From the IMG/VR virus record IMGVR_UViG_3300030102_005019, positions 1 to 57,469 of that record: a stretch of DNA of 57,469 nucleotides; one strand, written 5' to 3'. The notes beneath the pieces were generated by a model. The model was given only the letters and a program-made list of their open reading frames with translations. It did not search any database and was not told where the DNA came from. This document shows positions 13,135 to 15,020 of the stretch, one piece after another. A program made the translations under genes and the position numbers. Source of the DNA: a virus (lineage: Duplodnaviria > Caudoviricetes). Within the stretch, counting starts at the first letter, position 1. Each line of letters starts with the position of its first letter.

Positions 13135-13387
13135 CCCTGAACTATATATAATGGATAATAAAGAAAAAACAAAAATACTGTTTGTATTAGATTTTACAGA
13201 CAGCAAGGTGTATCGTTATTACGCGCCAGCAGCAGAACAAAAAGAAAATAAAGTTTCTGCGCATAATCATACTTGGGTAGACATAGATGAATATCCAAAC
13301 TATGAAGATTTCATAATGGAAAAAGGTCACTCCCTTAGTAATTGTGAGTGGATGGTGTCAAACACAGACAGAATATATGGTGATTAA
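13115..13387 (+). CDS. Hypothetical protein
   Basis: ORF track; start may be ATG 13151. Confidence 0.6.
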   Translation: MRVNRNNPELYIMDNKEKTKILFVLDFTDSKVYRYYAPAAEQKENKVSAHNHTWVDIDEYPNYEDFIMEKGHSLSNCEWMVSNTDRIYGD

Positions 13388-13395
13388 TATAATAT
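13364..13395 (+). promoter_or_regulatory. Early promoter-like motif, copy 7 (leaderless geometry)
   Basis: ACAGAC-N18-TATAATAT; ATG 6 nt after TATAAT; closest promoter upstream of the ncRNA cluster. Confidence 0.75.
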
Positions 13396-13399
13396 ATAT

Positions 13400-13777
13400 A
13401 TGAATAAAATTACAACATTAAAAGCTGATGATAACCTGCGTGAAACAACAGGTAGTTACAAAATAGGTTCTTTAGACAATGTACACTTTAAAGATCTAGT
13501 AAACATGTTGGGTGAACCAACGTTATCAGGTGAATCTGGCGACGGTAAAGTTCAGTTTGAATGGGTGCTAGAGCATGACAATAGGCTCTATACAATATAT
13601 GACTGGAAAACATACGACGCAGAGTACACATTAAACGAGTTAACAACCTGGTCTGTAGGTGGTAAAGAATATATAGACAATGATTTTGTAACAGAAATAT
13701 TCAGGTTGTGTGAAGAAAATTGTCCAGAAAACGTAGCTGAAAGTATTATGTTTTATAGTGGATCTGGATTTAAGTAG
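13400..13777 (+). CDS. Hypothetical phage protein
   Basis: LGEP..DGKVQFEW...TIYDWK...WSVGG motif seen in small phage proteins. Confidence 0.65.
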   Translation: MNKITTLKADDNLRETTGSYKIGSLDNVHFKDLVNMLGEPTLSGESGDGKVQFEWVLEHDNRLYTIYDWKTYDAEYTLNELTTWSVGGKEYIDNDFVTEIFRLCEENCPENVAESIMFYSGSGFK

Positions 13778-13910
13778 GCGGCGGCATACTGGTCACGTTA
13801 GCTTTATACCCGTTAGAAACAATGGTTGAATCCATGACGGTCGTCAAAGCAAAACAGAAAGAGCGGATAAATGATAATACTAGTTAGCTACCAGTCCGCA
13901 ACTGCTGCCT
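13776..13910 (+). ncRNA. Putative structured RNA with T-loop-like hairpin
   Basis: Closing stem AGGCGGCGG/CTGCTGCCT, plus ACTGGT/ACCAGT, GCTTT/AAAGC, CCGTTA/TGACGG and ATGG-TTGAAT-CCAT. Confidence 0.55.
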
Positions 13911-13913
13911 TAT

Positions 13914-14021
13914 TGGCATGATATGGTATTAAAGAGATAACACTAATGATTAGCTGGAACATAAGAAACACGCTGTCGCATAAGAACTCTTACGAAGGTT
14001 CGACTCCTTCCATGTCAACTA
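13914..14021 (+). ncRNA. tRNA-like / miniature tmRNA-like RNA
   Basis: Acceptor TGGCATG/CATGTCA with G3-U70, discriminator A, T-arm GAAGG-TTCGACT-CCTTC, stemless D-loop ATATGGTATTA, P2-like AAGAG/CTCTT. Confidence 0.65.
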
Positions 14022-14090
14022 AGTTATGGCCGAGGATCCATATTAGGTTTTTATTATTTTTATTTTTCATATTTACCTTGGTCATAACTT
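14021..14090 (+). ncRNA. 15-bp hairpin with 40-nt U-rich loop
   Basis: AAGTTATGGCCGAGG / CCTTGGTCATAACTT with two G-U pairs. Confidence 0.45.
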
Positions 14091-14094
14091 TAAT

Positions 14095-14520
14095 ATAGCT
14101 GTAGGTGGGGTTGCAAACCCACTGAAGAGTTAGTACCCAACAACGCCTTGCGGGAACAAGGGGTAGGGGGTTGCTCAGTCATCTAGACGACATGCTTATA
14201 AATATAAGTATGATAATCAGAGATATACTGAGAGCGATTAAGATCTATTACAAAGGAACTATATAGATTGTTCCATGATAGGTATGAAGCTGGCTGATAA
14301 TTAAGGAACACCTCACGCTATTGAGGTTAGCCAGACTGTTGTAATCAGATATGATTATTCAATGAGTAGTAATACTTAAGAATAGTGGTTGAACACTGCA
14401 ACAAGCTATCAAGATTAAGCGGGTAAACCGATTAGCTAGGTCTTATGGTGTCTATACGCCGTCTAACTCGCGCTTAATGTAGCCAACGACGGTCACAAGC
14501 CCGTGTAAATACAGAGTGAG
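14095..14520 (+). ncRNA. Large multi-branched structured ncRNA (closed domain of about 315 nt plus 3' hairpin/pseudoknot)
   Basis: ATAGCT/AGCTAT closing stem enclosing at least eight helices, then ATTAAGCG/CGCTTAAT and ACGG/CCGT hairpins. Confidence 0.6.
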
Positions 14521-14536
14521 CGCAAAATTATAAATT

Positions 14537-14707
14537 ATGGGAATTACAAAAAAACAATTTAATTCGTACGTAACAGTACAAGAATCAGGTATTACTAATA
14601 TGTTCAACGTATCATTAGTAACTGACTTGACAGGGCTGACAAAAGATCAGTGTATTGACATAATGAAAAATTATGAAGAATACAGTAAAAAGTTTTCGAG
14701 TGTATAG
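14537..14707 (+). CDS. Small protein, possibly DUF5049-like (56 aa)
   Basis: MGITKKQFNSYVTVQESGITNMFNVSLV...; the SGxTNMF motif is recalled from small phage proteins. Confidence 0.55.
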   Translation: MGITKKQFNSYVTVQESGITNMFNVSLVTDLTGLTKDQCIDIMKNYEEYSKKFSSV

Positions 14708-14716
14708 CAACAGCGT

Positions 14717-14748
14717 ACAGACACAAAACAAGTTCTTGCGTATAATAT
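14717..14748 (+). promoter_or_regulatory. Early promoter-like motif, copy 8
   Basis: ACAGAC-N18-TATAATAT preceded by GTGTATAGCA. Confidence 0.75.
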
Positions 14749-14771
14749 AATAAACATAAAAAAATAAAATT

Positions 14772-15020
14772 ATGGGAAACATGAGTTATTGCCGCTTTGA
14801 AAATACAGCGGGAGATTTAGAAGATTGTGTACACGCAATCGAAAACGGCGAGATGACAGTAGAAATGTCAGATTACGAAGTTGATGCTTTACAAGATCTG
14901 TTAAACCACAGCTTAAGCATTGTGGCTATGAGAAGAGAAATTGAAAGAGCTATAGATGCGTGGCATGAGCACGAGGCAGAAATGGAAAGACAAGAGGAAG
15001 AAGAGGAAGAAGAAGAATAA
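14772..15020 (+). CDS. Acidic phage protein (MSYCRFENT family)
   Basis: MGNMSYCRFENTAGDLEDC start and poly-Glu tail. Confidence 0.65.
   Translation: MGNMSYCRFENTAGDLEDCVHAIENGEMTVEMSDYEVDALQDLLNHSLSIVAMRREIERAIDAWHEHEAEMERQEEEEEEEE

Follow-up and report, generated by a model that had tools for sequence, protein, structure and literature searches.

A probable tmRNA homologue consisting of the tRNA-like domain only in a tailed-phage genome, and the family around it

The stretch analysed here (the window) is the whole 57,469-base IMG/VR virus record IMGVR_UViG_3300030102_005019, with an estimated completeness of 89% and a G+C content of ~31%. Portal, primase/helicase and ribonucleotide reductase genes identify it as a tailed phage. 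Within it we describe a 105-nt element on the plus strand (13914-14018), which is very probably a homologue of transfer-messenger RNA (tmRNA) with the tRNA-like domain (TLD) only. The tmRNA-SmpB pair is the main bacterial ribosome-rescue system, and whether and how lytic phages manipulate it is largely unknown. A conserved, widespread TLD-only family would, if true, be natural evidence of phage interference with trans-translation. The family is apparently undescribed in print: the literature searched, which did not extend to supplements, the tmRNA Website or subscription journals, gave no account of marine or flavobacterial phages with such a family.

Architecture of the element

The original prediction, made from the sequence alone, had proposed a miniature tmRNA-like RNA of about 105 nt. 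It was to have a 7-bp acceptor stem with G3-U70, a discriminator A followed by CTA, a perfect T arm, an unpaired GG-bearing D-loop without a D stem, and an AAGAG/CTCTT helix followed by AC before the T arm. All of these features are present (Table 1). The acceptor strands TGGCATG and CATGTCA (14011-14017) form seven of seven pairs (U1-A72, G2-C71, G3.U70, C4-G69, A5-U68, U6-A67 and G7-C66), and the 11-nt unpaired loop that follows the first strand reads ATATGGTATTA and includes the GG. The proposed length was reproduced by R1, a covariance model built from relatives with the window excluded. Run on both strands of the window, R1 gave a single match, at exactly 13914-14018 (+), with 48.5 bits, an E-value of 2.5e-8 and model positions 1-90 of 90 aligned. 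The layout of a tmRNA TLD was likewise borne out by the R1 match, by the matches of relatives to the Rfam tmRNA model (RF00023), by the acceptor and T arm that relatives have in common with full-length phage tmRNAs, and by strong conservation of the alanine identity set. As the trailer is CUA rather than CCA, CCA would need to be added post-transcriptionally. In a close variant present in runs X17 and X5, position 13914 is a G, which places G1 opposite A72. The folding energy of the element was not distinctive (z -0.72).

Table 1. Positions of the element, its parts and its leader in the window
Feature	Positions	Strand	Details
Conserved non-coding leader	13778..13913	+	Common to the window and nine other contigs
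Acceptor stem, 5' strand UGGCAUG	13914..13920	+	G3 = 13916; model R1 positions 1-7
D-loop analogue without D stem, AUAUGGUAUUA	13921..13931	+	GG = 13925-13926
P2 helix, 5' strand AAGAG	13932..13936	+	Pairs with CUCUU, 13987-13991
Variable 50-nt interior	13937..13986	+	Hairpin 13948-13956/13969-13977 with a 12-nt loop; frame 13957-13983
P2 helix, 3' strand CUCUU, and spacer AC (13992-13993)	13987..13993	+	Precedes the T arm
T arm GAAGG-UUCGACU-CCUUC	13994..14010	+	Direct reading
Acceptor stem, 3' strand CAUGUCA, and discriminator A73	14011..14018	+	U70 = 14015; A73 = 14018
3' trailer CUA, not CCA	14019..14021	+	Direct reading

Two of the checks named in the original prediction, ARAGORN and Rfam, were run, and neither recognised the element. 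ARAGORN called no gene in the window, whether tRNA or tmRNA, and Rfam gave no match at gathering thresholds. With E-values up to 10, the window element was matched by the tRNA model (RF00005) only, at 22.7 bits (gathering threshold 29; E 0.052). That match lies in a register shifted by five bases (13919-14018), with non-standard pairs in the D and anticodon stems and with no support from the family alignment. By these measures the element does not qualify as a tRNA, with a score below 29 bits, non-standard D and anticodon stems and no ARAGORN call. Nor is it a tmRNA by score, as no RF00023 match (gathering threshold 47 bits) was listed for the window. Since such genes are missed by both ARAGORN and the Rfam gathering thresholds, they are probably absent from phage annotations.

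The family and its conservation

Seed relatives were obtained by BLAST of fetched flanks, which gave two loci (L005 and L006) with a similar element, GGGCGUG...CACGUCC-A, bearing G3.U70. A degenerate pattern of the 3' half, which contains the CTA, matched 84 times in viral contigs, on 83 stretches. In 82 of the 84, a 7-nt 5' strand with full complementarity was present at most 250 nt upstream, and the remaining two are full-length tmRNAs of 351 and 407 nt according to ARAGORN. No relatives were found by blastn of 13700-14600 against a phage collection, blastn of a 110-nt family member returned only T-arm matches in unrelated tRNAs, and the exact 27-nt 3' end had no match in the viral contigs.

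For model R1, 65 of 70 distinct elements were aligned and the acceptor, P2 and T-arm pairs were supplied. The near-identical L098, L111 and L154 were left out, as were L114 and L105, the 5' end of the latter having been mis-assigned. Over the 83 pattern loci and the window, R1 gave 92 matches, including seven copies missed by the pattern; over 79 loci fetched through a neighbouring 125-aa protein, it matched L005 and L006 only. The 92 matches represent 83 distinct rows, from which five were dropped (the full-length L088, L089 and L140, and weak matches at L133:7474 and L164:4007). The family, as found with one restrictive pattern and one model, comprises 78 distinct mini elements on 81 loci of marine phage contigs, with lengths of 68-149 nt and a median of 94 nt.

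In the R1-fitted alignment of the 83 distinct rows, which is biased towards the structure of its model, 92.5% of the cells held standard pairs, compared with 74.7% in shuffles and 32-52% with slid partners. Changes on both sides were seen in 16 of the 19 modelled pairs, including all seven P2 pairs, which answers the proposed check on covariation; four of the five T-stem pairs had compensatory changes. In the same alignment P2 shows every kind of pair at every position. Its complementarity is also evident without alignment, as in ACUAC/GUAGU, ACCGG/CCGGU, UGCUGA/UCAGCA and AAACAUA/UAUGUUU. A cloverleaf with a conserved anticodon arm was looked for in the homologues and none was found.

Other parts of the element are close to invariant. 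G2-C71 is kept in all 78 distinct minis, G3.U70 in 73 (A-U in three, G-C in two), A73 in 75 and the GG of the D-loop in 77, with a family D-loop consensus of AAAUGGUUAG. Two T loops occur, UUCGAUU (62 members) and UUCGACU (16 members). The three bases that precede the T arm are AAC in 63 of the 78, GAC in six and UAC in two, the window being among the last. Biochemistry links these near-frozen parts to alanyl-tRNA synthetase (AlaRS) identity and to the tRNA elbow. Set beside a freely changing P2 and interior, the near-frozen G2-C71, G3.U70 and A73 (the alanine identity set) and GG suggest that selection maintains this set and the elbow. The expectation that G3-U70 would be conserved thus held for most of the family (73/78) and failed in the closest relative of the window, L160:960-1064, and in four other minis. 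The L160 element differs from that of the window at nine of 105 nt, and its acceptor has A3-U70 with U4.G69.

The interiors are mosaic and hypervariable, and wholly different between family members; the shortest minis have 9-20 nt inside P2. The window interior does contain the short frame that had been put forward as a possible tag, GAA CAT AAG AAA CAC GCT GTC GCA TAA (13957-13983; EHKKHAVA*). The suggestion that it acts as one was not upheld. In L160 the frame reads EHKKHANE*, its last two sense codons being altered (AVA* to ANE*), and four of the five interior differences between the two elements fall in the hairpin 13948-13956/13969-13977 with pairing kept, one as a compensatory A-U to U-A change and one as U.G to U-A. 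No conserved tag-like or alanine-rich-ended frame was found across 70 family interiors. A DNA contig of run X5, with flanks near-identical to those of the window, diverges within the element at 13928.

The relation to tmRNA was clearer in relatives than in the window. Of 20 of the shorter loci, searched against Rfam with E up to 1, 16 had an element for which RF00023 scored highest within its clan, with 31.5-52.7 bits and E-values from 5.5e-9 to 6.3e-18; these matches span the whole model with the middle deleted. Only that of L127 exceeds the gathering threshold (47 bits), and the other four loci had no tmRNA match. ARAGORN called none of the mini elements as a tmRNA. It did call the full-length element of L088 (~243 nt) as a 244-nt tmRNA with the tag ANKNQFALAA*. 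The acceptor GGGCGUG/CACGUCC is common to minis and to full-length tmRNAs on phage-like contigs (L088, 244 nt; L287, 402 nt; L288, 308 nt), and it differs from the acceptors of the best-matching chromosomal tmRNAs in three Bacteroidetes metagenome-assembled genomes (MAGs), which are GGGGCUG, GGGGUCG and GGGGACG. On this basis, the minis look like reduced descendants of a phage tmRNA lineage.

Searches beyond the viral contigs gave mixed results. The cultured relative Flavobacterium phage elemoF had no R1 match. Maribacter phage Panino and MW202828.1 were considered as further carriers and rejected, since their R1 matches reach at most 24 bits and correspond to tRNAs, a piece of a permuted tmRNA and a different tRNA-like element. 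MW202828.1 holds an unannotated tRNA-like element (L169 532-627; R1 21.9 bits) with a D stem, an acceptor without G3.U70, and a long P2-like helix, UAUACAAC/GUUGUAUA, enclosing a 31-nt insert. A scan of genome contigs returned 24 stretches, a mixture of true tmRNAs from unrelated phyla and phage-like contigs binned into MAGs, and assigned no host. An R1 match of 147 nt and 50.4 bits (L193 5026-5172) lies in a 2.6-Mb contig of an Anaerovoracaceae MAG and may be a mini-tmRNA in a prophage outside Bacteroidetes. Some family contigs also carry a second paralogue (L139:2376-2466, L158:12695-12788 and L164:105-198), with the acceptor AGGCGUG...CACG(U/C)CU, a discriminator U and, in two of the three, G3-C70. 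It lies just upstream of an open reading frame (ORF) beginning MPNMSYCRF. An ORF of the window at 14772 begins MGNMSYCRF, and no second-paralogue element stands beside it.

Genomic setting and possible function

Small plus-strand ORFs form a block upstream of the replication genes, and the element lies within it. Next comes a 515-nt ORF-poor stretch (14022-14536), so that the next plausible ORF start is ~515 nt past the element; this stretch had only chance-level Rfam matches (E 3.8-6.7) and no counterpart in any fetched locus. At 41-52% identity, the window portal is nearest to those of Flavobacterium "elemo" podophages and of Cellulophaga, Tenacibaculum and Maribacter phages (87 records had a match), and this marine phage therefore probably has a host among the Flavobacteriia. 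About 40% of words sampled from 13300-14800 recur across many marine metagenomes dated 2014 to 2025. SmpB, an RF-1/ArfB-type domain, a CCA-adding enzyme and an integrase were looked for among the window proteins and none was encoded; lacking the first three, the RNA would need host factors. The neighbouring 125-aa protein (13400-13777) matched no Pfam or PHROG family, and it was rejected as a dedicated partner because only two of the 79 loci that have it carry the element.

The leader upstream of the element (Table 1) is possibly part of a precursor transcript. It contains a hairpin (13863-13868/13894-13899) with a nearly invariant 25-nt loop and compensatory changes in two of six stem pairs. 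Other family members have other leader types. In the window, the leader carries an extra 62-nt module (13796-13857) that is skipped by the run X5 DNA contig. Downstream, CTA follows six of the seven family copies that were found without the CTA-containing pattern, and the same three bases stand behind 19 of the 22 ordinary tRNA genes of family contigs (register checked on Rfam alignments of L087 and L100). CUA is therefore the usual tRNA trailer on these contigs. Two of the three chromosomal tmRNA genes also lack an encoded CCA. Of the 22 ARAGORN tRNA genes on family contigs, 19 are tRNA-Met (CAT), and several abut a mini (L100, L105 and L090). Contigs from RNA libraries cover 13591-13951 and 14116-14471 (X15), 14101-14425 (X16) and 13619-14090 (X17, a 491-nt contig), which is a weak sign of transcription in this region; gaps in cover, such as 13952-14115 in X15, carry no meaning.

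The explanation we favour, to which we give about an even chance, is that the RNA is a decoy or inhibitor of trans-translation, or else a tag-less rescuer. It takes as its starting point the observed homology, structure and conservation of the element and the absence of a tag frame. The RNA would be transcribed within the small-ORF block and excised in the manner of a tRNA, with RNase P acting at the 5' end and trailer removal and CCA addition at the 3' end. Host AlaRS would charge it, as the conserved alanine identity set suggests. Host SmpB and EF-Tu would bind it in competition with host tmRNA; continued SmpB binding is predicted from its tmRNA descent and from an elbow and a P2 base that have been kept. 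Having neither resume codon nor stop codon, the RNA would titrate SmpB and block tagging. Alternatively, it would accept the stalled peptide and add no degradation tag, there being no template from which tagging could proceed. Either way, the phage would alter how its host handles stalled ribosomes during infection. These steps (processing, alanylation, SmpB binding and an effect on trans-translation) are predictions from sequence.

Several points weigh against this explanation. G3.U70 is lost in five of the 78 minis, including the nearest relative of the window, so alanylation cannot be essential in all members. The D-loop is GGUUAGAC compared with GGAUUCGAC in canonical tmRNA, and the P2 base is AAC compared with GGAC; with these departures, SmpB binding is not assured. 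The window element scores below the Rfam thresholds, with the tRNA model as its sole match. R1 matched only two of 15 portal-related records, 12 of which are less than 80% complete. The runs are assembled contigs in which RNA libraries may hold DNA, and ends, strand, CCA and level cannot be read from them. A discrete processed RNA, its CCA addition, its alanylation and its binding by SmpB all enter the explanation as expectations. Finally, many copies lie 10-25 nt upstream of an ORF start and have a trailer of the tRNA type, an arrangement that cis-acting processing would fit equally well.

We consider it unlikely, even so, that the element is a cis-acting, tRNA-like punctuation or stability element, in which the TLD would be a site for RNase P and 3' processing that cuts polycistronic transcripts, and the released RNA would have no role. 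The cuts would set the ends of neighbouring mRNAs and of the surrounding structured RNA modules. The close spacing of discriminator and ORF start in many contigs would suit such cutting, as would the CUA(A) trailer, the same as that behind 19 of the 22 tRNA genes, and the tRNA-Met genes abutting some copies. So would the setting of the element among conserved structured stretches, the recurrence of interior modules in the flanks of other copies, and the occurrence of the same TLD type in different gene contexts, as in the window and L160. RNase P needs only the acceptor/T-arm stack. Processing by RNase P would thus leave unexplained why G3.U70 (73/78), G2-C71 (78/78), A73 (75/78) and GG (77/78) are near-invariant while P2 varies, and in the window the next plausible ORF is some 515 nt away.

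Also improbable in our view is a decoy role, in which the RNA would act on host factors of defence or RNA decay that bind to tmRNA or tRNA. Tentative targets are tRNA- or tmRNA-cleaving nucleases, defence proteins bearing SmpB-like domains, and RNase R, which would be sequestered or from which an effect of the phage on translation would be masked. We know of no defence system that a TLD sets off or blocks, the window offers nothing that ties the element to one, and conservation falls on the AlaRS and elbow determinants instead of the loop cut by anticodon nucleases. The position in a small-ORF block upstream of the replication genes, where anti-host functions would be usual, agrees with a defence decoy, and so do interiors that are hypervariable even between near-identical flanks (the divergence at 13928 in the run X5 contig). 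CoCoNuT defence systems have SmpB-like domains predicted to bind tmRNA (PMC11090510), and fragments of tRNA and tmRNA come down with an anti-CRISPR protein of a phage when it is purified (PMC11662646).

A further reading concerns the interiors. Interior modules of some minis recur free-standing in the upstream leaders of other copies, in varied combinations (L084, L163, L126, L128, L139, L111, L138 and others), and from such comparisons the non-coding region is a mosaic of seemingly exchangeable structured modules. It is conceivable, with only a slim chance, that the TLD serves as a processed, CCA-tailed and perhaps charged scaffold escorted by SmpB/EF-Tu, with the hypervariable modular interior as its payload. 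If true, a tmRNA-derived chassis would offer the ribosome, or RNA-binding proteins of the host, changing small-RNA modules (aptamers, decoys or antisense elements), and would be the RNA equivalent of a protein scaffold that undergoes diversification.

It is very improbable that the element is a working miniature tmRNA whose frame is translated as a short tag: the frame exists, with A-V-A before UAA, yet in L160 it has become EHKKHANE* through hairpin-preserving changes, no tag-like frame is conserved in the 70 interiors, the 9-20 nt inside P2 of the shortest minis stand against one, no pseudoknot or resume-codon context was seen in the element, and ARAGORN made no call. A degenerate or intron-bearing ordinary tRNA, or a tmRNA 3' end left from an integration site (attP), can be all but dismissed: the sub-threshold Rfam tRNA match and the frequency in phages of tmRNA 3' fragments from integration (PMC9004378) would speak for it, but ARAGORN finds no tRNA, pair 1-72 is missing from L160 in the shifted register, the acceptor has both of its strands and these covary, the window yielded no integrase, and the family is conserved and widespread rather than decaying.

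Comparison with known systems

The closest known system is tmRNA itself (ssrA, RF00023). Like tmRNA, the minis (and the window element among them) have a 7-bp acceptor with G3.U70 and A73, a UUCRA-type T loop together with a stemless GG D-loop, and a P2 helix that replaces the anticodon stem, and tmRNA shares with them a purine-A-C spacer before the T arm, which in the window and one other mini is UAC and in the family is mostly AAC. Unlike tmRNA, they have no mRNA-like domain with resume codon, tag frame and stop. No pseudoknots are recognisable in the minis, for which an interior of 50 nt in the window, and of 9-20 nt in the smallest, leaves little space; the folding tools used do not predict pseudoknots. 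The minis measure 68-149 nt, whereas the full-length tmRNAs of this analysis, from phages and chromosomes alike, have ~240-400 nt, and at the base of P2 they have G.A followed by A-U where tmRNA has tandem G.A/A.G.

Two other kinds of tRNA-like molecule offer partial parallels. The jakobid mitochondrial tmRNA (Rfam mt-tmRNA) is a tRNA-like molecule without a tag template; it is organellar and the minis are viral, and Rfam lists no mt-tmRNA match for the window or the 20 loci, in a listing where lower-scoring overlaps within the same clan are hidden. In plant viruses, the 3' ends of the RNAs bear aminoacylatable tRNA-like structures, mimics that interact with synthetases and elongation factors of the host. 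Those structures are cis elements of RNA genomes, are folded through pseudoknots and are unrelated in sequence, whereas a mini is a stand-alone, tmRNA-homologous gene.

Full-length phage tmRNAs are known, including the two-piece ssrA of Melnitz (PMC9004378) and those of Cellulophaga phage Calle and Maribacter phage Panino (PMC8776804, PMC11590407). Those on L088, L287 and L288 are, like the minis, borne by marine phages and have the same acceptor and T arm; full-length phage tmRNAs keep the tag frame and additional domains, which the minis do not. The tmRNA annotated in Panino (L200 3558-3890; PP540027.1 27557-27889) overlaps with both tRNA-Asp and tRNA-Thr and seems to be circularly permuted, with the T arm and a 3' piece, CACCUCCA, ahead of GGGGGUGAUUGGAUUUGAC, a 5' piece of canonical type, and of a possible tag that ends in ...RQFA*.

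The only phage precedent for a TLD-only RNA that we found in print is the tmRNA of mycobacteriophage DS6A, which Hudson, Lau and Williams (2014, PMC4131195) give as "TLD only" in a row of a table and a single sentence. The same source states, citing Mao et al. 2009, that a similar molecule strongly inhibits tmRNA, perhaps via SmpB titration. As far as that brief description goes, DS6A resembles the minis in having a phage tmRNA reduced to little beyond the TLD; it is set apart as a single actinophage case, in contrast to a large marine-phage family in which P2 covaries, the inserts are modular and a genome sometimes holds two paralogues. With full-length phage tmRNAs (244-402 nt) at one end and 68-nt minis at the other, these RNAs form a graded series in which minimal recognition by SmpB and AlaRS could be defined.
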